In this document: positions 1 through 11,597 of the stretch, one piece after another
Position numbering within the stretch: position 1 is the stretch's first letter
How the letters are laid out: each line of letters starts with the position of its first letter
Source of the DNA: Fibrobacteria bacterium AD312
GTDB lineage: Bacteria > Fibrobacterota > Fibrobacteria > Fibrobacterales > Fibrobacteraceae
NCBI GenBank assembly: GCA_001462345.1
Contig: LIUM01000047.1
Coordinates: 975 to 64,974 of the forward strand
DNA: 64,000 nt
Direction of reading: 5' to 3'
Notes under the pieces: generated by a model
What the model was told of the DNA's origin: nothing
The model's database searches: none
The model's input: only the letters and a program-made list of their open reading frames with translations
Translations under genes and position numbers: made by a program

Positions 1-570
1 TCCTATACAACGAAAGAGGACGGTTATTCGTTAAGTGTTTCCGGAATAACTTATTATAGATACAACGGATCTATACGGACGATACAAAGTGCCTCTAATG
101 AGGTAATAGACTCTATTATAAATTTTGTTATATATTCAAAAACAGAAGCAATTATTACGGATTCTATAGGAACATCTAGTGAAACTAGCTCAGAAACATT
201 TTGGGACGTTACTGATTTGGGGACTGCTAATGAAGAACATCGGTATCGCCTACAAGAACGGAGTGATGATTCTGTTGGCTATGTTATTTACTCTCTGGAT
301 TCATCGGGTTTTAATAGTTCAGTTGAAACCATATCTTTGGAGGGAACGTCAAATAAAACGGTTTATGAAAAAATACCTGGTGTCCCAGAGTCAATAAGAA
401 ATAATTCATTATGTAGTGCAAATAAAACATATTATAATGGGGCAAATCCAATTGTGTCAACTGTTTCCGTTCTTGAAAATACAGATTCAAGTTTTGCCGT
501 GCATGTGACAACAGATTATTTAAATGTAAATATAGGAGAATCAGAGTGTTATTATAATAGGATGCCATAG
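1..570 (+). CDS. hypothetical S/T/N-rich protein, 5'-truncated by the window edge
   Basis: Frame 1 is open from nt 1 to the TAG at 568-570. There is no recognisable motif. The gene is co-oriented with the downstream cassette genes. Confidence 0.45.
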   Translation, partial: SYTTKEDGYSLSVSGITYYRYNGSIRTIQSASNEVIDSIINFVIYSKTEAIITDSIGTSSETSSETFWDVTDLGTANEEHRYRLQERSDDSVGYVIYSLDSSGFNSSVETISLEGTSNKTVYEKIPGVPESIRNNSLCSANKTYYNGANPIVSTVSVLENTDSSFAVHVTTDYLNVNIGESECYYNRMP

Positions 571-651
571 AATAATCGTCTATAATAAAAGAATTCTAGA
601 TAATTGTTGGTTTGTCATTAGGGATCTGAAAAATTTTAGCTCAGAGTTATT

Positions 652-1526
652 ATGGAAACAAAACAAATATCCAAATTTGAAGATGTTATGCTTTTGATTC
701 AGACGTTTGGTACGAAAATCGGTTTTGTATATCGTGGACAGGCTGATGAAATATGGGAATTGAAAGCAAATTTGTTCCGAAAAAAAATTGATGGCGTAAT
801 AGATCCTCTTGCTCATCTAGAAAAATTCAAAAAGTATCTTATCGGGAGAAAAGATGTCAATGACTTATCTGAGAATGAAATTTGGGCAGTTGGGCAACAT
901 TATGGATTGTATACTCCATTACTTGATTGGAGTGTCTCTATAGCTGTGGCCTTATTTTTTTCATTTGAAAATGATCAAATAATATCTGATAATAGGTCTT
1001 TGTTTATTCTGAATGCAGACAAAATGAACAAGAAATTTTGTGATGAATTGGTTTCTCAAATAAAAATAAAATATCCAGAATTTCCTGATTCAAGGTGGGA
1101 TAAGATAGTTAAACCAGAATGGAAGGGAAAATTTTTACTTGATCTTCACGAAAAAAATAATTTAGGATCATCAATGTTTTTTGTTGAGGAGATAGTTCGT
1201 GATTTAGAAAAAAATGGCCACGAATGTTTTCTCCAAAAACATTTGGTTCTGATAGGATTCTTGCACAAAGGGGTCTGTTTTCAATTGTATATAATAATGA
1301 AAAATTTTCAAAGATAATTGATAATATTGGTGAAAATGAATGGCTAATTAAAGTAAATATTGATTCATCATTACGAAAATCAATTTTGAAATATTTAGAC
1401 TCAGTGAATGTCAATTATTTGTCTTTATTCCCAGATATTATGGGCGCAGCACGGTACACGAACTACAAATTGAAGAGTTATCAAGATATACAGGAATCTC
1501 TTAGTGAGAAGAATTTTTGGCTTTAA
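652..1526 (+). pseudogene. FRG-domain protein, reading frame broken (frame 1 to frame 0) near an A7 run
   Basis: The N-terminal ORF (652-1317) carries FRG hallmarks (YRGQ; QHYGLYTPLLDWS). The C-terminal ORF (to 1526) carries the FRG C-terminal motif DRILAQRGLF. Both frames are open across 1203-1317, and an A7 homopolymer lies at 1208-1214. Confidence 0.6.
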
Positions 1527-1599
1527 TAAATGAGGATTTTGTGATTTTTTATGTAAAATACTTTTAGCCTGTTTTATTTACAAAGAAGTGAAAATAGCA

Positions 1600-1810
1600 C
1601 CTAACAGCCGTTGGTGCGCGACCTTCGCTTCATCTCATACATGAGCCAGCTCCTGGCGGCAATTCGAACTAACATTTGCTTTGCAAATGAAGTTCTCATT
1701 GCATATTTTCCGTTTCTCGATTATATTCTCATAAGTTGAAACGGAAAATATAGCGCCAGGGCCGTCTCATCGGAGCGCGGACATGCTCGGCGGCACAACT
1801 AAACGTTATA
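1600..1810. repeat. long attC-like structured element (E1), 211 nt
   Basis: It begins cCTAACAgcc and ends aAACGTTATa. It contains several hairpins (gaactaacatttgc/gcaaatgaagttc; ccgtttc/gaaacgg). Its ends and its gcgacc(t)tcg core resemble the E7 element at 7590-7888. Confidence 0.4.
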
Positions 1811-1848
1811 AGGACTGCATAAAGCAGCAAATCAGAGAGGTGAAGAAA

Positions 1849-2238
1849 ATGAAGAAAAGAATTGTACTAGTATTTATTGTTTTGTTTTTAAGTTCATTTG
1901 GAATTTATGCTCAGAATCAAACAACAGAACCTGTTCAAGAACCTATGGTTCCTTATCGTCTTTATAAAACAACAAATAATTGGATATTCATACAATTAGA
2001 AACTGCAACTGGAAAGATGTGGCAGATACAATATTCTGTTCAAGATGATAAGAGAGGAGGACTTGTTTTGAATGATAAAAATCTTGCCGAAGACAAAGAA
2101 GTTGTTGTTGGCAGATTTACACTTTATCCTACACGTAATATGTGGACTTTTATTTTATTAGATCAAATATCAGGTTCGTCTTGGCAAGTTCAATGGTCTT
2201 TTGACAAAAAAAATAGATTTGTTACTCCAATTTATTAA
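1849..2238 (+). CDS. secreted hypothetical protein with an internal duplication
   Basis: An SD (agagagg) precedes the ATG at 1849, and a signal peptide follows (MKKRIVLVFIVLFLSSFGIYA). There are two related repeats, NWIFIQLETATGKMWQIQYS and NMWTFILLDQISGSSWQVQWS. Confidence 0.5.
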   Translation: MKKRIVLVFIVLFLSSFGIYAQNQTTEPVQEPMVPYRLYKTTNNWIFIQLETATGKMWQIQYSVQDDKRGGLVLNDKNLAEDKEVVVGRFTLYPTRNMWTFILLDQISGSSWQVQWSFDKKNRFVTPIY

Positions 2239-2977
2239 ATCTATGTTTGTTATAATTTTTATTGCATTACTTATTTTATTTATATTTTTAAGTGTAAACT
2301 CTGCAAAAATAAAAGGATTATTTGGTGAAAGAAATGTAGCGGCACGACTTAGTTTCTTAAATCCCAATGAATATAAAATTTTTAATGATTTACTTCTAAG
2401 AACAAACAATAACAATACAGTTCAAATAGATCATCTTGTTATTTCTATTTATGGAATTTTTGTTATAGAAACTAAAAATTATAAAGGTTGGATCTTTGGT
2501 AATGAAAATGCGGAAAATTGGATGCAAATCATTTATAAAGAAAGACATCAATTTAGAAATCCAATAAAACAAAATTGGTCTCATATATATGCATTAAAAG
2601 AAATTTTGAAAGATTATAAAAATATAAGATATTTCCCGATTGTGGTTTTTGTTGGAAGTGGGGAATTAAAGGAAATTCAGACAAAAAGGCCTGTTCTATA
2701 CAGTAATAAACTTTCTGATTATATAAAAAGTCAGTCAATTGTACAGAATTTGTTGCAAGAAGATATACCAAAAATTATTTCGATATTAGAAACAAAAAAT
2801 ATTGGAAATAAGGAAAATAAAAAAGAGCATATACAAAATATACATAAGACGACTGTTGAGCGAAAAAAATTAATTTGCCCGAGATGTAATTCGGAATTAA
2901 AATTAAGGGAAGGAAAACATGGAAAATTTTATGGCTGTTCAAATTATCCATATTGTAAATTTACAATGAAATATTGA
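2201..2977 (+). CDS. NERD-domain (nuclease-related) protein with a C-terminal topoisomerase-type C4 zinc ribbon
   Basis: An N-terminal TM segment is followed by a NERD core (DHLVISIYGIFVIETKNYKGWIFG) and a C-terminal CPRC...CSNYPYC ribbon. The start may instead be the ATG at 2243. Confidence 0.6.
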   Translation: MTKKIDLLLQFIKSMFVIIFIALLILFIFLSVNSAKIKGLFGERNVAARLSFLNPNEYKIFNDLLLRTNNNNTVQIDHLVISIYGIFVIETKNYKGWIFGNENAENWMQIIYKERHQFRNPIKQNWSHIYALKEILKDYKNIRYFPIVVFVGSGELKEIQTKRPVLYSNKLSDYIKSQSIVQNLLQEDIPKIISILETKNIGNKENKKEHIQNIHKTTVERKKLICPRCNSELKLREGKHGKFYGCSNYPYCKFTMKY

Positions 2978-2986
2978 AGAAAATCG

Positions 2987-3117
2987 TATAACACAGTTTT
3001 CAACCTGACATTTGTTTTGTCATAAAACTTGCTAAAGCCTTCGGCTTCTTCACGCAAGTTTTACGCCAATTTTTGCCTACGGCAAAAAACACAAAAGCAG
3101 GTTAAAACACTGTTAGC
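2987..3117. repeat. attC-like element E3 (family A)
   Basis: It runs from TATAACA ... caacctgaca ... through the palindrome ttttgcctacggcaaaa ... to caggttaaa ... TGTTAGC. Its arms are inverted repeats shared with E4 and E10. Confidence 0.55.
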
Positions 3118-3202
3118 TCGGCGCTGCGCGCGAGGCGGAAAAGTAAGACGAAATGATAGTATCTATGAAAAAACACTTCATCGAAAAGGATTAGAAGGAA
3201 CT

Positions 3203-3640
3203 ATGCTTATCAGATTTGCTGAGATAACTGATCTACAACAGATATTAGGACTCTATAATTCACTAAACCCAGATGATAAACCTATTGATTTATCGCTAGC
3301 GCAACAAATTTGGACTAATAGTATTAATTGCAATAATATTAAATATGTTGTTGCAATTGAAAATGGTATAATAATCGCAACCTGTAATATCGCGATTATA
3401 TTGAATTTAACACGATCAGGTAGACCATATGGAATAATAGAAAATGTAATAACGGATGAAAAATATAGAAGAAAAGGAATTGGAAAGGAAATAATAGAAA
3501 CTGCTCTAAAATATGCTAAAGAAATGAACTGTTATAAAGTAGTTCTTCTGAGTAGCAGTAAGCGAAAAGACGCACATGAGTTTTATAGATCAATAGGATT
3601 TGATACTAACTCCAAAAAAGGATTTGAAATAAGGTTTTAG
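3203..3640 (+). CDS. GNAT family N-acetyltransferase
   Basis: The acetyl-CoA binding motif R-R-K-G-I-G-K is present (DEKYRRKGIGKEII). I trimmed the start to the first ATG downstream of E3. Confidence 0.7.
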   Translation: MLIRFAEITDLQQILGLYNSLNPDDKPIDLSLAQQIWTNSINCNNIKYVVAIENGIIIATCNIAIILNLTRSGRPYGIIENVITDEKYRRKGIGKEIIETALKYAKEMNCYKVVLLSSSKRKDAHEFYRSIGFDTNSKKGFEIRF

Positions 3641-3666
3641 ATCTTATACATATGATGAGGATATAA

Positions 3667-4005
3667 ATGAGCGTTTTTACTAACTTGCAAGAGATATTTT
3701 CACATCAGATTATACTTATTCTAGCAGAACAATTAAGCACAAATAGTAACGGAATCAGTATTCAAAACTATGAAGCTAATGGTATTTTATTTATTCCCGT
3801 CTTTACTTCAGCAGAGAAATTAAAAGAATCATTAAAAGGGCATAAATTAGAAAATGAAGTAATTAAAATGGAAGGTTCTTATTTTTGTTCTATATTATTA
3901 GGAAATGAGATAATTATTGTCAATCCAGATTTATCTGATGAAATACGAACAAGTGCAAATGAATTATCAGAATTAATGAAGGATCAAAAAAATAAAAATA
4001 GCTAA
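3667..4005 (+). CDS. small hypothetical protein, possibly SseB-like
   Basis: It sits 26 nt after the GNAT gene. A weak LFIPVFTS-type motif is present. Its TAA stop (4003-4005) lies inside the gcTAAca start of E4. Confidence 0.35.
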   Translation: MSVFTNLQEIFSHQIILILAEQLSTNSNGISIQNYEANGILFIPVFTSAEKLKESLKGHKLENEVIKMEGSYFCSILLGNEIIIVNPDLSDEIRTSANELSELMKDQKNKNS

Positions 4006-4117
4006 CAACTGCTTCAACCTGTCAATTCCTTTTGTCATGAAAATTGCAGTCGCTACGCTCGGCAATTTTCACGCCAATCCCTTCGGGCCGGAATTGCAGG
4101 TTAAGCGAAATGTTAGC
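4001..4117. repeat. attC-like element E4 (family A), 117 nt
   Basis: It begins gcTAACAa and ends aTGTTAGC. The arm aacctgTcaattcc pairs with ggaattgcaggtt, leaving one unpaired T as an extrahelical base. The ORF stop lies inside the first core. Confidence 0.6.
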
Positions 4118-4135
4118 AATACAAAAGAATTTCAT

Positions 4136-4372
4136 ATGACTAGTATAGATAAAATTGATAATAAAATTTTAGAATATTGTTGCCAAAAATGGTTCAAAAA
4201 CCACGCCGGAATTGCCGCATTGGAGTTGGGGCGCGTTTTTGATTTATCCAATAAAAAAGTTATGTCTCTGTTAGAAAGATTAGTCGCAGAAGGTTTTGGG
4301 ACTATAAATAAAAATGTGTCACTGTATTCATTATCTATTTCAGAAAAAAAATATAAGATGAAAAAAATGTAA
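4136..4372 (+). CDS. small putative winged-helix DNA-binding protein
   Basis: The first ATG lies after E4. The 78-aa product ends ...LLERLVAEGFGTI, which resembles a MarR/wHTH recognition helix. Confidence 0.35.
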   Translation: MTSIDKIDNKILEYCCQKWFKNHAGIAALELGRVFDLSNKKVMSLLERLVAEGFGTINKNVSLYSLSISEKKYKMKKM

Positions 4373-4493
4373 CCCATATTTTTTTCCAGCAAACGATACA
4401 TTAAAGAAAAGTTATTATTCATCTGAACTTTCTCAGCAGAATATCCCTGAATTTACAAAGCGGCTTCATTTAGGGGCAAATCAAATTGCATTA

Positions 4494-5297
4494 GTGTGTT
4501 TCAGCGAAGAGGTTTTGAAAAAATATTTTGATCATCCAGAAAAATATTGTATTGAGGATACAGAATCTGGGGGTGAGATAACAACGCCTTATGAAACTGC
4601 ATATTTTTTTGTTCAATACGGGAAAAGAACTATAAATAATGATATTTCTATTGTGGTTTTATACAAAGATCTTACAATGTTAGAAAATTCTGAACAACAG
4701 CATTGGAGTTCTTATGAAATTAATAATTGTAAGATTGATCAAGGAGATGATAATTTTAGGCGTTTTGTACAACGTAACTATTATGGAGAATTCGTTGAAT
4801 ATTCAGATCCAATAAAAAATTTAACTATCGCGATTGATTTAATGAATAAAGTGTGCCGTAAAAATCTATTATTCAAAAAAAATAAGAACATGCATTTATG
4901 TCCACCAGTAGAAAATACACAAAAAGCATATTGCGATTCTTGTTCTGAGCTTTATAAGATTATTGGACCAGATAATATTGATCAGAACGCATTAAAAAGG
5001 ATTTTATTTGAAAAATGGAATATGCAAGAAACGGAATTACAAAATAAAGAATCCCACAGACCGTATAGTTGTAATCAACTTTTTAAGCTTTTAGAAGACC
5101 GTTTAATGGGAAATAATAAATTGACTGAAGTAATAGACCAGATCAAAAAATCTCGCATTGATGCGGACCATAAAATTTTGGAGCCTGATTTTAAAAACCA
5201 AAATTATACAAAACAATTTTATGTTATTTGTAAAAATTTTGTTGTATTGTTGAATCAATTTTCTGGCGCTTTTAGGAGTTTTAAAAAAGATTGCTAA
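4494..5297 (+). CDS. hypothetical protein (GTG start)
   Basis: The 267-aa ORF has no in-frame ATG between the upstream TGA at 4359 and the GTG at 4494. Its TAA stop at 5295-5297 lies inside the gcTAAca start of E5. Confidence 0.45.
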   Translation: MCFSEEVLKKYFDHPEKYCIEDTESGGEITTPYETAYFFVQYGKRTINNDISIVVLYKDLTMLENSEQQHWSSYEINNCKIDQGDDNFRRFVQRNYYGEFVEYSDPIKNLTIAIDLMNKVCRKNLLFKKNKNMHLCPPVENTQKAYCDSCSELYKIIGPDNIDQNALKRILFEKWNMQETELQNKESHRPYSCNQLFKLLEDRLMGNNKLTEVIDQIKKSRIDADHKILEPDFKNQNYTKQFYVICKNFVVLLNQFSGAFRSFKKDC

Positions 5298-5375
5298 CAC
5301 TCGGTGTAGCTGACACTCGCATGAAACTCAGCACAACTGGTTCTAGCAGCGAGTGCAGCTAACCTTTACGTTAGC
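5293..5375. repeat. attC-like element E5 (family B), 83 nt
   Basis: It runs from gcTAACActcggtgtagctgacactcgc ... gcgagtg ... to cGTTAGC. The internal inverted repeat is cactcgc/gcgagtg. The first ~60 nt are about 85% identical to the element at 8898-8970. Confidence 0.55.
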
Positions 5376-5390
5376 TGGATAAAGGAAAAC

Positions 5391-5597
5391 ATGCACATAA
5401 TACTTGAGAAAGCAAGAAGATACATGAAAAACATTCAGCATCATGATTTAAAGCGACTATACTCCTACAGTCAATCGGTTGGATATTGGGTGCAGACAAA
5501 AAATGGGATACCTCTTATGGAGGACCCTTTTGCTAGATTTAGGCCAACGAGTAAAAAGGCTGATGTTGAAACGGGTGAAGATAAGAAAGGCGAATAA
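5391..5597 (+). CDS. graspetide-type RiPP precursor peptide A
   Basis: An SD (aaaggaaaac) is followed by 68 aa. A PFARF motif (DPFARFRPTSKKADVETGEDKKGE) precedes a C-terminal core rich in T/S/K/D/E. It is one of two tandem paralogs directly upstream of an ATP-grasp ligase. Confidence 0.55.
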   Translation: MHIILEKARRYMKNIQHHDLKRLYSYSQSVGYWVQTKNGIPLMEDPFARFRPTSKKADVETGEDKKGE

Positions 5598-5615
5598 CAT
5601 TCTAAAGAGGTAGAA

Positions 5616-5819
5616 ATGCATATAATACTTGAAAAAGCAAGAAAGTATAACAAGAGAGAACATTCAAGAGAAATGTTAAATCAGTTCTCTTATAATCAAA
5701 AACTTGGATTTTGGTCTCATAAGTTAAATAATGTTCCGTTAATGGATGAAAGCGTTGGTTTCAAACCAAGAACAAAAAAAGAAGATATTGAAACAGGAGA
5801 GGATAGGAAAGGTGAATAA
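5616..5819 (+). CDS. graspetide-type RiPP precursor peptide B (tandem paralog)
   Basis: An SD (aagagg) is followed by 67 aa. The N-terminus MHIILEKAR is the same as in precursor A, and the core is FKPRTKKEDIETGEDRKGE. Confidence 0.55.
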   Translation: MHIILEKARKYNKREHSREMLNQFSYNQKLGFWSHKLNNVPLMDESVGFKPRTKKEDIETGEDRKGE

Positions 5820-6750
5820 TGTCAATGTATTAATATTATCAGACTCAGAAGATTTCACATCTGATTTGGTATGCATTGAACTCCATCGACAAGGCGTTTC
5901 TTACTTAAGAATAGACAGAGATCTAATAAATAGCTACGACATTTCCTGGCAATTAAGTGGTAATTTAATAATTACAAATATTGAAACAAATGAAACATTT
6001 TCAATAAGTAAGGAAGAGCTTTCAGGAGTTTACTTCAGAGCCCCAACGTATTTTCGCGAGACATTCACAACAAGTGTGACCCCAGAAATCCAATTAAAAA
6101 GGTCACAAGCGTTATCCATGTTCAGAAATATTGAATACTTTGGTCAAGCAAAATGGATGAATGCGCCTTCAAGAACATTCTTTGCAGAAAACAAAGTAAT
6201 ACAGCTTTTGTATGCAAAGGAAATGGGGTTTAATATTCCAGAAACAGAAATTACTAATGGTAATGAGCCCAAATCATCCCATCAAGAGTATATAGCAAAA
6301 TCAATTGACACCGCACTATTTGATTTCGGAGAAAGCGAGGCGTTTTCTTATGCTGAAATTGTAAGTAAAGGCGATTTAAAAAAGTATGATAATCGTGCGG
6401 CGCCGTATTTTATTCAAGAATATCTTTCGGATAAAATTGATTTAAGAGTAACAGTTATTGGTGATATGGCTTATGCATGCGAGATTCTAGAAGATTCGCA
6501 AGGCATAACTGGTGACTGGAGATTAAGAAAGAATAATGTAAAATTTATCTCAATTGAACTCCCTGATGATATTAGGAGGATGTGTATAGACATTACCGCA
6601 AAGTTTGGACTAATGTTTTCTGGAATTGATTTAATTCGTAGAAAAGGGCGCTATTATTTTGTGGAATTAAATCCGACAGGAGAATGGGCGTGGTTGGTTG
6701 ATTCTTGTGGATTCAAAATTCAACAAAGGATTTGCGAGTGTCTGTTATAA
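5812..6750 (+). CDS. ATP-grasp ligase (RimK/MdnC-like peptide macrocyclase candidate)
   Basis: A GTG start with an upstream caggagagg SD overlaps the end of precursor B. An ATP-grasp fold is evident (…YFIQEYLSDKIDLRVTVIGD…FVELNPTGEWAW). The product is ~312 aa. Confidence 0.7.
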   Translation: MNNVNVLILSDSEDFTSDLVCIELHRQGVSYLRIDRDLINSYDISWQLSGNLIITNIETNETFSISKEELSGVYFRAPTYFRETFTTSVTPEIQLKRSQALSMFRNIEYFGQAKWMNAPSRTFFAENKVIQLLYAKEMGFNIPETEITNGNEPKSSHQEYIAKSIDTALFDFGESEAFSYAEIVSKGDLKKYDNRAAPYFIQEYLSDKIDLRVTVIGDMAYACEILEDSQGITGDWRLRKNNVKFISIELPDDIRRMCIDITAKFGLMFSGIDLIRRKGRYYFVELNPTGEWAWLVDSCGFKIQQRICECLL

Positions 6751-7604
6751 ATAAAATATCTGCAGCAGTATTCGCTGTTTGGCGGTTTATCCAAACCGAG
6801 ATATTGTTTCCAATTCCACTACTTGGGGCTAATAGGCGTATACATAAAAAGCTACACGACTTTGAAAATGAAAAAACGAAAGATCTAGACTATATGAATG
6901 GATATGAAGCTTTATCAATTGAAAGATTGAAAGAGTATTATAAAGATTCATTTGAAACGAAAAAGGTTATTGAAGATAAGCTCAAGACATCTCTTGCATC
7001 ATTAACACTGGCATCAGCATTCATCCTGGCTTTTACTAATTACTTTGTGTCAGGATTTGGAAAGGATTCAATTTCAATATTTGATAGGTTAATAATATCA
7101 ATGATGATATTTTCAATATTGAACTTTATTTTAGCGGCTGTTATGGCGATGGAAACGATTGGAGAGAGAAATAAAATATATTCAATTTTCCCAAAAGATG
7201 AAGCGATCCACTTATCTAAAGATTCGGAATTGAAAGAAATGTATGCCATTCTAACCGAGTGCAATTCTCTTTCAAATACCATACGTCAGAATTTTATGAA
7301 TGTAAGTTTCAAGTCTATTAGAAACGGAATAATTGCAACAATTATGCTGCCGATTCTTTTTGCTCTTGGAAATTCCGATCATAAACAGACTGATCCAAAT
7401 TTGACTTTGGTAACTGCAATAGCAAAAGTGAACACAAGTCTTTATCAAGAATTAGAAAAAATGAACCAATCAATTGATACTTTGTCTAAAATAATAGAGA
7501 ATGCAAATTATAATCGGACAAATGCAATCTGTAATAAGCTAGATAGTATCGCATTAAAGATAAGTTGTATCTCAAAAACAAATACACCAGCTAACAAACG
7601 TTGA
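6705..7604 (+). CDS. multi-TM membrane protein of unknown function (RiPP cluster partner?)
   Basis: It has three or more hydrophobic helices. It overlaps the ligase by 46 nt if it starts at 6705, and the alternative start is the ATG at 6894. It ends ...gctaacaaacgTTGA inside the start of E7. Confidence 0.45.
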   Translation: MWIQNSTKDLRVSVINKISAAVFAVWRFIQTEILFPIPLLGANRRIHKKLHDFENEKTKDLDYMNGYEALSIERLKEYYKDSFETKKVIEDKLKTSLASLTLASAFILAFTNYFVSGFGKDSISIFDRLIISMMIFSILNFILAAVMAMETIGERNKIYSIFPKDEAIHLSKDSELKEMYAILTECNSLSNTIRQNFMNVSFKSIRNGIIATIMLPILFALGNSDHKQTDPNLTLVTAIAKVNTSLYQELEKMNQSIDTLSKIIENANYNRTNAICNKLDSIALKISCISKTNTPANKR

Positions 7605-7888
7605 ACCTGATGGCGCTGTCATCTCGTAGGTCGCTCGCTCCAGGCGTCAATTCGCTTTCGGATTCGTGCTGCGCACGAATGCCACTCCTAACGGCTGAGG
7701 GGTTTTGCCTACGGCAAAAGTCGCTTCGCGACCCTTCGGGCCCTCATCCGTAAGTCGTTCGAAGCTCATTACACAGCCTTCCGATTCATTCCCAGTCTTT
7801 ACTATCTTCTCGTAATGAATCGAAAGACTGTATCGCCTGGGCTCCCTCCTTGTAGCCCTAATGCGGGGCGGGTTACCTCAACGTTATA
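7590..7888. repeat. long attC-like structured element E7 (~300 nt), possibly two tandem sites
   Basis: It begins gcTAACAaacgttgaacctg and ends cctcAACGTTATAcgc. It contains the palindrome ttttgcctacggcaaaa that is shared with E3. It also contains the hairpins ggattcgtgc/gcacgaatc and cagtcttt/aaagactg. Confidence 0.4.
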
Positions 7889-7943
7889 CGCACTAATCGT
7901 AATTGTCTTGCCAATAGTATCAAATGATACTATCATTGATTGT

Positions 7944-8903
7944 ATGAAACCACCTTATGAAATTACGCCAAAGATTTTAAAACTATATGGCCGTATTAAT
8001 GAAGCCATCGGTCAATGTAAAAGTTTGAATCTGGTAAGGCCAGAAGCCAGACTTAGGAAACAGAATAGGATCAAGACAATCCATTCGTCGTTGGCGATTG
8101 AAGGAAATACGCTCAGTGTGGATCAGGTCTCTGCAATAATTGAAAATAATCGCGTGGCAGGGCCGAAAAAGGATATTATTGAAGTTCAAAATGCAATAAA
8201 AGCATATGATGTTTTGAATTCACTGAAGACTTTGAAAATGAGCGATTATTTAAAGTCTCATAAAGTTTTGATGGACGGACTGATTGCAAGCCCTGGAAAA
8301 TTTAGGACAAAACAGGTTGCCATAGTGAAGGGAAAAAACCTACAACATGTGGCACCAAAATATGATATTGTTCCTGGATTAATGAAGGATCTTTTTGATT
8401 ATTTGAAAACAGATCATGATTTGCCGATAATTAAAAGTTGTGTTTTTCATTATGAATCTGAATTTATTCATCCGTTTGAAGATGGCAACGGAAGGATGGG
8501 GCGGTTGTGGCAAACAAGGATATTGATGGATGAAAATCCAATATTTGAATATGTTCCGATTGAAGAGACAATAAAGAATAATCAGGAAAAATATTACAAG
8601 TCATTATCTGATTCAGATAATATTGGCATGTCGACGCCATTTATTGAATTTATGCTTGAAGCAATTGATAATTCGTTACGAGCAACAATTAGCGAGACAT
8701 CGGTTCCAAATTATGATTATGAAGCCCGATTTGAAATATTGTCAAAGAATATTAATGACTGGTTTGATCGTAAGGAATATATGAAAGTGTGTAAAGGAAT
8801 ATCAACAGCGACAGCGAGCCGGGATTTGAAACAGATGGTAAGCGATGGCCGATTAATAGTTTCGGGCACGGGCCGCATGACGAAATACAAAAGAGGCGTA
8901 TAA
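7944..8903 (+). CDS. Fic/Doc family protein (AMPylator-type Fido domain)
   Basis: The Fic motif HPFEDGNGRMGR is present. I trimmed the start to the ATG at 7944 downstream of E7. The TAA stop at 8901-8903 lies inside the gtaTAACc start of E8. Confidence 0.8.
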   Translation: MKPPYEITPKILKLYGRINEAIGQCKSLNLVRPEARLRKQNRIKTIHSSLAIEGNTLSVDQVSAIIENNRVAGPKKDIIEVQNAIKAYDVLNSLKTLKMSDYLKSHKVLMDGLIASPGKFRTKQVAIVKGKNLQHVAPKYDIVPGLMKDLFDYLKTDHDLPIIKSCVFHYESEFIHPFEDGNGRMGRLWQTRILMDENPIFEYVPIEETIKNNQEKYYKSLSDSDNIGMSTPFIEFMLEAIDNSLRATISETSVPNYDYEARFEILSKNINDWFDRKEYMKVCKGISTATASRDLKQMVSDGRLIVSGTGRMTKYKRGV

Positions 8904-8970
8904 CCATCGATGTAGCTGATGCTCGGATGAAACTCAGCATAACTGGTTCTAGAAGCGAGCGCCGAGGAAA
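8898..8970. repeat. attC-like element E8 (family B), 3' end degenerate
   Basis: Its sequence gtaTAACcatcgatgtagctgatgctcggatgaaactcagcataactggttctagaagcgag is about 85% identical to E5. No terminal GTTAGC is present, and the element abuts the rsmH stop. Confidence 0.45.
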
Positions 8971-8976
8971 ATAAAT

Positions 8977-10023
8977 TTATGCTCGTATCGCCCATCGCAA
9001 ACGAACTGATCTTGAGCGTGGATTGCTGAAACGTTCCTCTTTACTTCCTCTTATTTCTTTATCCTGAATGTATGAATATAGTCCTAATCGTTTTCCTTCT
9101 TCAAAGGAATGTACTACGCGATTATCTTCACCTGAATGAAAAGTAAGTATTGCAACGCGACCACCGGATTTTAAGCAATATGGTAAATTGGCTAGCAATG
9201 CTTCCAGCGCTGAAAGCTCTCCATTAATTTCAATACGCAGTGCTTGATATACTCGTCGTTCTGATTTTACGATATCATTATCGCTACGTTTCAATTCAGA
9301 CAAGGTGCTTTTTATTATTCTTGTAAGATCCATGGTTGTTTTCATTTCTGTGCGATTTTGAAAAATGGCGTGGGCAATTATGCATGCGTCTGGTTCATCA
9401 GCATTGTCCCGTAGAAGAGATGCAATTTTATTTTCTGTAATCCGATTCAATAAATGTGATGCGGTCTCTCCTTTTTCCTGGTTCATTCGCATATCCAGTG
9501 GTCCATCTTTTTTAAACGAAAATCCTCGTTCTGGATTGTCAATTTGCATAGATGAAACACCGAGATCAGCTAAAATCATATCAACATATGGAGGGTCGAT
9601 TGCTGAAAGTACCTTGGGAAGAGACGCAAAATTTGCATGGATTGCAACAAAAGATTCCGGTCCAAAACCTTCGCTACGAATTCGTGCCTCTGTTTTCGAT
9701 AACTCTACAGAATCAACATCCAGTCCATAGAGAATCCCGCCTGGTTGTATTTTTTTAAGTATCTCGCGCGTGTGTCCGCCGTAGCCAAGCGTTGCGTCTA
9801 CGGCTATTTCTCCGGGCTTTGGATCGAGAATAGCAAGTACTTCCTGCAAACAAATTGAACGATGAGTCCCTGCTGGTGTATCTCCGCGAGAAATAACATG
9901 TTGTACCTCTGCTTCATATTTTTCTGGGTTCAATTCTTTATACTTCTCAGAAAAGGTGCGAGGGTGTGTTCCCGAATAGCGCGGTCTTCGTTTATGTGGC
10001 TGATTTGAATTTGAATCTTGCAT
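8977..10023 (-). CDS. rsmH: 16S rRNA (cytosine1402-N4)-methyltransferase RsmH
   Basis: Conserved RsmH motifs are present (DATLGYGGHT, DLGVSSMQIDNPERGFSF, GPLDMRM, HSGEDN, NPRSRSVRLR). The ORF track extends the N-terminus to 10179, and I chose the internal Met at 10021-10023. Confidence 0.8.
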   Translation of the reverse strand: MQDSNSNQPHKRRPRYSGTHPRTFSEKYKELNPEKYEAEVQHVISRGDTPAGTHRSICLQEVLAILDPKPGEIAVDATLGYGGHTREILKKIQPGGILYGLDVDSVELSKTEARIRSEGFGPESFVAIHANFASLPKVLSAIDPPYVDMILADLGVSSMQIDNPERGFSFKKDGPLDMRMNQEKGETASHLLNRITENKIASLLRDNADEPDACIIAHAIFQNRTEMKTTMDLTRIIKSTLSELKRSDNDIVKSERRVYQALRIEINGELSALEALLANLPYCLKSGGRVAILTFHSGEDNRVVHSFEEGKRLGLYSYIQDKEIRGSKEERFSNPRSRSVRLRWAIRA

Positions 10024-10114
10024 TGTGTTTCTCTCAATATATAATAGAAAGAAAAAATATACTGAAGTAGTAGAGCTTGATATAAAGTTTATATATATCG
10101 TAGTTAAAAAGAAT

Positions 10115-10210
10115 TCTAACAACTGATAATTCCTTTTGTCACACTTTTTGCAGTCGCTCCGCTGCAAAAAACGCGCCAATATACGCGTTTCAGGTTAAGC
10201 AAATGTTAGC
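10115..10210. repeat. attC-like element E10 (family A), left arm partly deleted
   Basis: It runs from tcTAACAactgataattcc ... through ttgcagtcgctccgctgcaa ... to caggttaagcaaaTGTTAGC. Its right half is nearly identical to E4. Confidence 0.5.
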
Positions 10211-10337
10211 TGTGTGCCATGCAAAGGTGCACCAATCTACTCGGTGGAAGTCCGAGATCGGGAGATGCCAGAATCTGACATGTACCATTTTAACGGACAC
10301 AACCATCAGGTATATTTATATCTGAAAGAGGTATCCT

Positions 10338-10415
10338 ATGTCAGAAGAGAAACGAAAAAGGCAATATAGCCCTGAATACAATGCAAATGCGGTCAAATTG
10401 GCTTTAGGAAATTAG
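10338..10415 (+). mobile_element. IS3-family transposase orfA N-terminal fragment (remnant)
   Basis: A 25-aa ORF encodes MSEEKRKRQYSPEYNANAVKLALGN*, matching the conserved OrfA start (…KRxxYSxEFKxxAVKL). No transposase body follows it. Confidence 0.45.
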
Positions 10416-10518
10416 CAATACAAAATTTGAAAACATTATGAATATCTATTAATTAAAAATGCGCGTCAAAAAATAGGGTTCATAAATCGGATTTTTTTTT
10501 CTACATTTAGTTTTACTT

Positions 10519-10605
10519 GGAGAGATGCCAGAGTGGTCGATTGGGACGGTCTCGAAAACCGTAGTCTCCTCACGGGGACCGAGGGTTCAAATCCCTCTCT
10601 CTCCT
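10519..10605 (+). tRNA. tRNA-Ser (anticodon CGA)
   Basis: A cloverleaf was folded by eye: acceptor GGAGAGA/TCTCTCC, anticodon stem ACGGT/ACCGT with loop CTCGAAA, a long variable arm, and T-arm GAGGG/CCCTC with TTCAAAT. CCA is not encoded. Confidence 0.8.
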
Positions 10606-10615
10606 CTGCAACAAG

Positions 10616-10642
10616 AAAAGGATGCTTCGGTGTCCTTTTTTT
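10616..10642 (+). terminator. hairpin plus T-run after tRNA-Ser
   Basis: The hairpin aaaaggatgcttcggtgtccttttttt contains G·U pairs and is followed by a T tract. Confidence 0.4.
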
Positions 10643-10832
10643 GTTTTAAAACGTTAGGCTTTCATTTTGACTGCATCCAAAATTTTCTATTTAAGAGCAC
10701 TCCTAAAAATTGGTTTGACGAGAGGCATTAGCAATTGGATAAGCACAAAATTCAAGAATATTGGTGGTATTCGTAAGTTTGAACAAAAAATGAGATTTTA
10801 GAGGTGTCCATAACTGAGCTTTTTTGAAAAAC

Positions 10833-11597
10833 TTAAAATGATTTCTTATTTAAGAACGCAAACTCTTTTCCAACACAACAAGGACATTTGGGATTTTTTT
10901 CGACTGGAATTTGAACGAAAGTATTATTCCATAAATTCATTTCCGTTAAAACAGAAGTCGATGAATCGGGCTTTCCTTCAATAAAATAGCGAAGCAGTTG
11001 AGAAACCTCCATACCACCTGTCGTTGATACGGCAGGTCCCCAGACCCCAGCATTTAATGTTTCTTTTTCTGGCTTTTCTGGAAATACACATCTTAAACAT
11101 GGCCCATTAGGTGAAGTTAACGGCATCCATACAGCAGAAGTTCTTCGAATGGCTGCATAAACCCAAGGGATACCATGTTTTACGCAAACATCATTTAGTA
11201 GATATCGTTCTTCTAAACGATCGGTGGCATCAATAATGGCATCGACACCGTCTATTAAGGATTCAATATTTTGTGCATTTACGTCTAAAACGAGACTCTC
11301 TATTTCTACGTGATGATTGATTTGCCTAAGTCTTTGTTCTGCTGCTTTTGCTTTCGGTTTATGAACTTGAGCATCAGATTCATCAAATAAGTGCTGCCTT
11401 TGTAAATTACTCCATTCAACCACATCTCGATCGACTAGGCGTAAAAATTGAACGCCTGCTCTTGTTAAAAATTCGGCACAAGAACAGCCGAGTGCGCCAC
11501 AGCCAAAGACTAAGATGCGTAAAGAACTAATTGTTTTTTGCCCTTCTTCTTTAATGTTCGGAAGAGCAATTTGACGATCATAGCGATTTGAATCCAA
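10833..11597 (-). CDS. ThiF/MoeB family E1-like adenylyltransferase
   Basis: A GCGALG nucleotide-binding loop and two C-terminal CxxC pairs are present (GPCLRC…CPCC). Confidence 0.7.
   Translation of the reverse strand: MDSNRYDRQIALPNIKEEGQKTISSLRILVFGCGALGCSCAEFLTRAGVQFLRLVDRDVVEWSNLQRQHLFDESDAQVHKPKAKAAEQRLRQINHHVEIESLVLDVNAQNIESLIDGVDAIIDATDRLEERYLLNDVCVKHGIPWVYAAIRRTSAVWMPLTSPNGPCLRCVFPEKPEKETLNAGVWGPAVSTTGGMEVSQLLRYFIEGKPDSSTSVLTEMNLWNNTFVQIPVEKNPKCPCCVGKEFAFLNKKSF

Follow-up and report, generated by a model that had tools for sequence, protein, structure and literature searches.

Gene content of the locus

The sequence studied here, a stretch of 64,000 nucleotides referred to below as the window, covers positions 975 to 64,974 of contig LIUM01000047.1 from Fibrobacteria bacterium AD312 (GCA_001462345.1), and its left-hand part is an array of cassettes in the chromosome of a member of the Fibrobacteraceae. 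Within this array, two paralogous small open reading frames (ORFs), an ATP-grasp ligase gene and a gene for a membrane protein very probably make up a complete module for a graspetide, a peptide made by ribosomes and modified after translation (RiPP), carried as one promoterless integron cassette (Table 1). A preliminary description of this DNA had placed two paralogous ORFs of 68 and 67 amino acids between attC-like sites, followed by a GTG-initiated ATP-grasp ligase that overlaps the second of them. Both ORFs were recovered with the sequences quoted there, and the ligase start was located at the GTG at 5812, overlapping the stop codon of the second ORF by 8 nt. Exact look-up retrieved all four products as called genes, both on a 180,774-bp contig at NCBI and on contigs from Logan.

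Table 1. Features of the graspetide cassette and of the surrounding array (positions in the window).
Feature	Position	Strand	Description
Precursor A	5391..5597	+	68 aa; core PTSKKADVETGEDKKGE, encoded at 5544-5594
Precursor B	5616..5819	+	67 aa; core PRTKKEDIETGEDRKGE, encoded at 5766-5816
Predicted graspetide synthetase (ATP-grasp macrocyclase)	5812..6750	+	312 aa; GTG start preceded by AGGAAAGG
Family-specific membrane partner	6738..7604	+	288 aa; GTG start; 13-nt overlap with ligase
attC of preceding cassette	5292..5376	+	85 nt; R' core GTTAGC at 5370-5375
Graspetide gene cassette	5371..7883	+	2,513 bp; four ORFs and own attC
attC-like site of the graspetide cassette	7588..7889	+	R'' GCTAAC at 7590; R' GTTATAC at 7883-7889
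FRG-domain protein	652-1317
attC-type site (long)	1597-1816		220 nt; multi-stem fold, z = -8.1
NERD nuclease with Zn ribbon	2201-2977
attC-type site	2986-3118
GNAT acetyltransferase and SseB-like ORF	3029-4005
attC-type site	4000-4118
Upstream cassette ORFs	4037-4372, 4494-5297
SoFic-type Fic protein	7944-8903
attC, 3'-truncated copy	8901-8962		85% like 5292-5376
rsmH/MraW-type 16S rRNA methyltransferase	8977 to ~10022	-	Pfam 7.7e-71
attC, degenerate	10110-10212
IS3 orfA remnant and tRNA-Ser(cga)	10338-10606

Precursor peptides

Precursors A and B, which both start with MHIILEKAR(R/K)Y, shared 49% full-length identity (E = 2e-24). Their conservation was assessed in a survey of relatives with one genome per species, in which 380 loci encoding ligase relatives were found and 80 were fetched; counts of 80 given below refer to these loci, and precursor counts to an alignment of 88 sequences. 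In 78 of the 80 loci a homologous ORF of 60-70 amino acids lay directly upstream of the ligase gene, often with the same 8-nt overlap. The idea that the small ORFs are non-coding was dropped. Tandem precursors were uncommon: two or more were present in 7/80 genomes, as well as in the closest metagenomic relatives.

W33, K55, K56, D58, E60, G62, E63, D64 and K66 were invariant in all 88 aligned precursors, and T/S54, T61, G31 and H2 nearly so. Conserved motifs in the leader were an N-terminal H-I/L-L-L-E-K-A-x-x-Y and a central G-x-W. The core offers T/S, K and K as donors and D, E, E and D as acceptors, on a precursor encoded directly upstream of the ligase, which is the combination by which graspetides are recognized. 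From Bacillota to Methanobrevibacter and Haloarcula the core was near-invariant; this constancy across domains may point to a target or partner in the cell that is itself conserved. The likeness of DPFARF in precursor A to the microviridin leader motif PFFARFL, pointed out in the preliminary description, appeared to be a chance resemblance. It lies in the least conserved stretch of the peptide, the F50 insertion occurred in only one other of the 88 sequences, and precursor B has VGFK instead; a microviridin-like leader was accordingly rejected.

Makarova et al. (2022; PMC8939145) give in their supplement a precursor cluster, "cluster171", with the table label "Lee gr_07"; its consensus, xxHILLxxA...PExxxYDxxxGxW...PxTKKxDVETGEDQKGE, agrees word for word with that of this precursor family. 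That table already includes a Fibrobacteria genome and also lists several of the 80 loci surveyed here. The window precursors aligned over their full length with published cluster171 members, for example those of Cohnella panacarvi and Bacillus JCE/JCA, and showed 33-38% full-length identity to the precursor of Gra-3, a group-7 cluster of Bacillus sp. S66 (Ayikpoe et al., 2022; PMC9576775) in which a precursor and an ATP-grasp ligase are accompanied by a hypothetical protein. Expression of Gra-3 in Escherichia coli yielded a threefold dehydrated C-terminal tryptic fragment, and its product was likened to the tricyclic marinomonasin (Ayikpoe et al., 2022). As judged from their sequences, the window precursors thus belong to the known group 7 graspetides, and the earlier suggestion that they might define a new graspetide group was abandoned. 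The numbering of group 7 reportedly goes back to Lee et al. in 2020 (JACS) and Ramesh et al. in 2021, and marinomonasin, like Gra-3 a member of group 7, is said to have been characterised by Kaweewan et al. in 2021. Marinomonasin reportedly contains one ester and two isopeptide bonds, which would suit the T-K-K donors of the core.

The ATP-grasp ligase

Full-length matches of the ligase were obtained to TIGR04187, TIGR04185, TIGR04184 and TIGR04192. The highest-scoring NCBIfam model was GRASP_SAV_5884 (TIGR04187; 160 bits, 5.8e-47), followed by MvdC (129.2 bits, 1.7e-37; cutoff of 425 not reached), MvdD (97.6 bits, 7.6e-28; cutoff of 475 not reached) and grasp-with-spasm (76 bits, 2.3e-21). 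Residues 5-77 gave a weak match to the MvdD pre-ATP-grasp domain. With a profile of 34 homologues, every solved graspetide synthetase was matched, namely AMdnB (7m4s, 5e-47), CdnC, MdnB, MdnC, 9bou and PsnB (PDB entries 7m4s, 7mgv, 5ig8, 5ig9, 9bou and 7drm); LysX/ArgX-type enzymes were barely matched. D235-W236-R237 and the motif E-L-N-P-T-G-E-W were invariant in the ligase family and aligned with MdnB, CdnC and AMdnB, in which the DWR motif is likewise found (5ig8, 7mgv and 7m4s); a D-(F/W)-R motif is characteristic of graspetide synthetases. Over residues 1-312 the ligase was 41-46% identical to those of gr_07/cluster171 genomes (E ~1e-80). These results place the enzyme, at the level of sequence, in the graspetide macrocyclase clade and not with RimK. 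Together with the precursors upstream of it, they bore out the proposal of a complete graspetide-type RiPP module.

As an alternative, a RimK-like system has been suggested, in which the ligase would append poly-glutamate to the small proteins at their C-terminal ...KGE. The ligase's best Pfam match was indeed the RimK ATP-grasp domain (1.5e-06), and both window peptides end in Glu. Against these two points, the NCBIfam RimK family model matched only the C-terminal half of the protein (40.7 bits, 1.7e-10; cutoff of 143.4 not reached) and was outscored 2-4-fold by graspetide models (98-160 bits), while the top PDB matches were all graspetide synthetases. The terminal Glu, moreover, was present in only 58 of the 88 precursors, with Gln in 9 and Bacillus members ending in ...EDxK, and the homologue Gra-3 loses 54 Da and shows no mass gain. 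Poly-glutamylation is thus a very improbable activity for this enzyme.

The membrane partner

The preliminary description had called the product of the fourth gene polytopic. Two strong hydrophobic segments (residues ~86-104 and ~117-139) agreed with this term, which is nevertheless loose, as the third segment (~195-211) was weaker. An AlphaFold2 model of the 288-aa protein was all-helical. Conserved motifs were (L/I)EDKAK before the first predicted transmembrane segment and ExNxxxNxIRNN before the third, followed by a variable coiled-coil tail. Searches of Pfam, NCBIfam, PADLOC and PDB sequences returned no relative. Homologues were retrieved more readily by profile search (32 proteins) than by word-indexed single-sequence search (2 proteins).

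A homologue was encoded directly 3' of the ligase gene in 64 of the 80 loci according to single-sequence search and in 78/80 upon transitive clustering. It was always co-directional with the ligase gene and adjacent to it, and no other gene was present in more than 5/80 loci. Precursor, ligase and membrane protein hence form a near-universal three-gene unit (78/80 species-representative genomes), and conservation of this arrangement indicates that the membrane protein is an obligate partner throughout the group-7 family. Its most probable role lies in dealing with the product at the membrane, export, immunity or anchoring being the default guess. A role in transport has been proposed for another uncharacterised family of membrane proteins, in thuringinin loci that lack a transporter (Makarova et al., 2022; PMC8939145). 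The sole group-7 neighbours listed by Carter et al. (2026) are acetyltransferase or efflux genes; the partner is probably missing from their list because their co-occurrence survey cannot see proteins that have no Pfam domain.

Boundaries of the cassette

The attC site that precedes the graspetide genes is canonical: in the fold of its bottom strand (-21 kcal/mol, z = -4.3) an unpaired spacer separates the R-box stem from the L-box stem, which is bulged, and the site resembles a site at 1010-1095 of Logan contig L083. Recombination at its R' core, with crossover at G/TT between 5370 and 5371, sets the start of the cassette, and the cores at 5370 and 7883 set its limits. The cassette's own site at the 3' end folds into multiple stems (z = -7.5) that are closed by its terminal arms; it is atypical, with correct terminal cores. 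Its 3' half (7800-7865) was 79% like an element 5' of the cassette in contig L092, and both elements end in a GTTA core. Independent assemblies broke within this site, at 7661, 7677 and 7683, and breaks of independent assemblies also fell inside attC sites.

Long sites of this type were observed twice in the window (1597-1816 and 7588-7889), and a third one precedes the graspetide cassette in L092. They have short internal modules, such as TTTTGCCTACGGCAAAA and CCCTTCGGGCC, in common with the canonical sites.

R' and the first ATG are just 15 nt apart, which leaves no space for a promoter, and promoter-like sites in the cassette were no commoner than in shuffled sequences. The cassette is promoterless, and its distance from any possible cassette promoter (Pc) is 8.5 kb or more.

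The same cassette in other contexts

The module was found, ~99% identical, on four other contigs (L001, L002, L091 and L092) that represent three metagenome or metagenome-assembled genome (MAG) contexts. Three different upstream contexts, that of the window and L001, that of L002 and that of L092, diverged precisely at the G of GTTAGC, and the cassette itself stayed ~99% identical. With a slash at the junction, the sequences read ...GCAGCTAACCTTTAC/GTTAGCTGG in the window and L001, ...GCAGCTCAACCGAAA/GTTAGCTGG in L002 (SRR13442943) and ...CGCTAAACTAAAT/GTTAGCTGG in L092 (GCA_020049715.1); written at the core, GCAGCTAACCTTTAC/GTTAGC, GCAGCTCAACCGAAA/GTTAGC and CGCTAAACTAAAT/GTTAGC converge at GTTAGCTGG. 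This pattern is the signature of integrase-mediated cassette exchange. Because the same module follows three different upstream sequences, each joined at G/TT, the cassette is mobile, and the flanking attC folds and the divergence of the contexts at G/TTAGC together substantiate the idea that the module is carried as a single integron cassette.

The copies differ in integrity. Codon 11 of precursor A (5421-5423) is TAC (Tyr11) in the window and L002 and TAG in L092, where the gene call starts at Met12 and yields a product of 57 amino acids without the HIILEKA leader motif. An identical 57-aa gene call suggests the same stop in L001. Precursor B was intact in all copies, with an identical protein on three other contigs. 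In L092, the ligase gene is frameshifted and split into pieces of 234, 106 and 73 amino acids.

Such lesions, the lack of an own promoter with promoter-like sites at chance level, the distance from any possible Pc and the frameshifted gene in a neighbouring cassette of the window would all suit a silent or decaying passenger that sits distally in an array without promoters and stays unexpressed in its present host. This explanation seems distinctly improbable for the window copy. It has four intact ORFs that show translationally coupled overlaps and are provided with Shine-Dalgarno sequences, it differs from L002 by only 2 substitutions across ~2.3 kb, and silence within an array would not negate function after reshuffling.

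The array and its host setting

Between position 1 and ~10,212 of the window all but one of the long ORFs lie on the plus strand. GC content was 27-38% across positions 1-9,000, lowest at the 5' end, and 35-41% in most of the remaining window. The ORFs of the array are separated by imperfect palindromes that start with ...TAAC and end with GTTA.... In total, at least 7 attC-type sites of a single polarity were located between co-oriented ORFs over ~13 kb, including 2 further sites in 3.1 kb of upstream DNA recovered from L083; the bottom-strand folds of the array sites had z-scores of -4.3 to -8.1. With lenient settings, a home-made attC detector returned a noise level equal to that of shuffled sequence. 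Under strict settings combined with folding it detected canonical sites only, and it served as a negative screen. An Rfam scan of window positions 1-11000 returned only tRNA.

At its end the array adjoins tRNA-Ser(cga) and a remnant of IS3 orfA. Synteny of the window with a relative of 94.8% identity (L093, 7775-12427) held only from 10356 rightwards, starting inside the IS3 remnant beside tRNA-Ser, and this relative carries a Por_Secre_tail gene where the window has the array. Because it lacks the array, the whole array is strain-variable at this locus. The assignment of the host to the Fibrobacteraceae agrees with LeuRS and GlgE, which belong to protein clusters (at least 90% identity) bearing the names Fibrobacteraceae or Fibrobacter.

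The neighbouring cassettes encode proteins that look like defence or toxin functions. In PADLOC, a Fic protein matched SoFic (1.7e-47) and a protein with an FRG domain matched PDC-S15 (5.7e-30); the latter is possibly frameshifted against the ORF at 1224-1526. The others are a NERD nuclease with a Zn ribbon and a GNAT acetyltransferase, which has a common cassette with an SseB-like ORF. In the cassette directly upstream, the two window ORFs correspond to a single ORF of at least 417 amino acids in L001 (1-1254). Because this counterpart is continuous, the window copy (4037-5297) is read as containing a frameshift or an assembly error. The rsmH/MraW-type 16S rRNA methyltransferase gene, on the minus strand between the 3'-truncated and the degenerate attC sites (Table 1), has the appearance of a last cassette that was inverted or rearranged. 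Genes of this type normally head the dcw cluster, and an array is an odd location for one.

Group-7 modules outside cassettes

Flanking attC sites were not seen in the 80 genomic relatives or in the closest metagenomic relatives (54-57% identity), and the detector gave no consistent flanks over 746 kb of related loci. Instead of attC flanks, an upstream region of 150-200 nt precedes the units of these relatives. In the closest non-cassette relatives (L087, 2190-2240; L089, 1060-1102) a conserved element, GGTTAAGTGATATTATT...TCAAGGAGGC, occurs just 5' of the first precursor gene. This element, which the cassette version is without, could represent a promoter or a 5' untranslated region.

Extra genes that recurred within 5 kb of group-7 modules elsewhere (L056, L036, L014, L062, L016 and others) encode GajA (5 loci), GajB (4), a type II methyltransferase (4), a type I restriction enzyme (4), an AbiO/Nhi-like protein (3) and a serine recombinase (4). 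It was considered whether the same chemistry might serve, in place of a secreted natural-product pathway, a self-contained conflict module, acting in anti-phage defence, addiction or competition, in which the cross-linked tail would act on or through the membrane partner. The near-invariance of the core over such phylogenetic distances, unlike the diversifying cores typical of RiPPs, is consistent with such a role, as are a unit without protease or transporter, the near-universal membrane partner, the SoFic, FRG/PDC-S15 and NERD cassettes in the window array and, as the only recurring neighbours elsewhere, GajA, GajB, restriction-modification and AbiO/Nhi-like genes. In contrast, PADLOC matched none of the four proteins, and the defence neighbours were present in only 3-5 of the 80 loci each, which may not exceed the background of accessory islands. 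The acetyltransferase and efflux neighbours reported for group 7 by Carter et al. (2026) also read more like self-resistance to a product. A conflict role is therefore unlikely on present evidence, and the same low probability is given to the broader idea that group-7 units are a widespread, self-sufficient three-component conflict module (a small protein whose invariant acidic/basic tail is cross-linked, the ligase and the membrane partner) that travels here as one integron cassette among defence cassettes.

Proposed pathway

We consider it very probable that positions 5371-7883 are a promoterless integron cassette carrying a complete group-7 graspetide module, which would operate as follows. 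The cassette would be expressed by read-through, and the two paralogous precursors would be translated. Their conserved leader, HIILEKARxY together with the central GxW, probably recruits the ATP-grasp ligase, which would phosphorylate Asp and Glu side chains of the core (T/S)KKxDxETGEDxKGE. The activated side chains would then react with the hydroxyl of Thr/Ser and the amines of the two Lys residues to form approximately three side-chain macrocycles (-54 Da) whose exact ring pattern is drawn here by conjecture, and the protein encoded by the fourth gene would act on the product at the membrane, in export, immunity or anchoring. Threefold dehydration is known for the homologue Gra-3 (PMC9576775); the present analysis itself supplied the gene content, the clade of the ligase, the assignment of the precursors to their family, the near-universal occurrence of the three-gene unit, the attC flanks and the G/TT junctions in three contexts.

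Several observations weigh against this proposal. The ligase scored under the curated cutoffs of every NCBIfam graspetide model, because none of these models was built for group 7; on account of these scores it would form a separate branch and not be an orthologue of MvdC, MvdD or SAV_5884. A fold search yielded no fold relative of, or functional clue for, the 288-aa membrane protein. The cassette's own attC, at 302 nt, is far from canonical length, and the home-made detector missed it; attC sites usually measure 57-141 nt. Neither an integron integrase nor attI was found in the window, as far as its ORFs were checked, or in 3.1 kb of upstream DNA, and with neither in view the array may be an integrase-less attC cluster. 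Finally, the nonsense codon in precursor A and the frameshifted ligase gene in other copies suggest that the cassette is not under uniformly strong selection.

Relation to known systems

The window module shares with other group 7 loci the precursor consensus HILLxxA...Y(D)xxxGxW...(T/S)KKxDxETGEDxKGE, the gene order of precursor, ligase and hypothetical membrane protein, and a ligase length of ~312 amino acids. It differs in having two tandem precursors, where most relatives have one, and in being a promoterless integron cassette, where relatives have an upstream region of 150-200 nt and no attC flanks. With the microviridin pathway (MdnA/MdnB/MdnC, group 1) it has the enzyme superfamily, the reaction type and the DWR and NPTGEW motifs in common, and MdnB and MdnC were among the best structure matches. 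In contrast to that pathway, it encodes one ligase instead of two, lacks the PFFARFL leader and the TxKxPSDxxE core, and includes no GNAT or ABC-transporter genes.

As a cassette, the module resembles the multi-gene cassettes of sedentary chromosomal integrons that carry toxin-antitoxin or anti-phage genes: it is promoterless, co-oriented and attC-bounded, combines several translationally coupled genes in one functional unit and lies beside SoFic, FRG and NERD cassettes. It is set apart from these by its cargo, a RiPP biosynthetic module, by its attC of 302 nt and by the lack of an integrase in view. No paper combining integron, attC and ATP-grasp was found in the literature searched. The module is of an already catalogued type, group 7; carriage on an integron cassette is its sole unusual feature, and mobile carriage of this kind seems to be previously undescribed.

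The occurrence of a group-7 module in an integron array is a modest addition and not a new kind of system. Its value for work on group 7 lies in the cassette limits, by which recombination has delimited a minimal unit of one or more precursors, one ligase and the membrane protein, without protease or transporter, and which tell experimenters which genes to co-express. The analysis also flags a partner protein, present in 78/80 loci, that Pfam-based co-occurrence surveys do not see. For integron biology, the locus documents unusually long, multi-stem attC-type sites and provides direct junction evidence that, in Fibrobacteraceae, a four-ORF peptide-modification pathway is mobile as one cassette.

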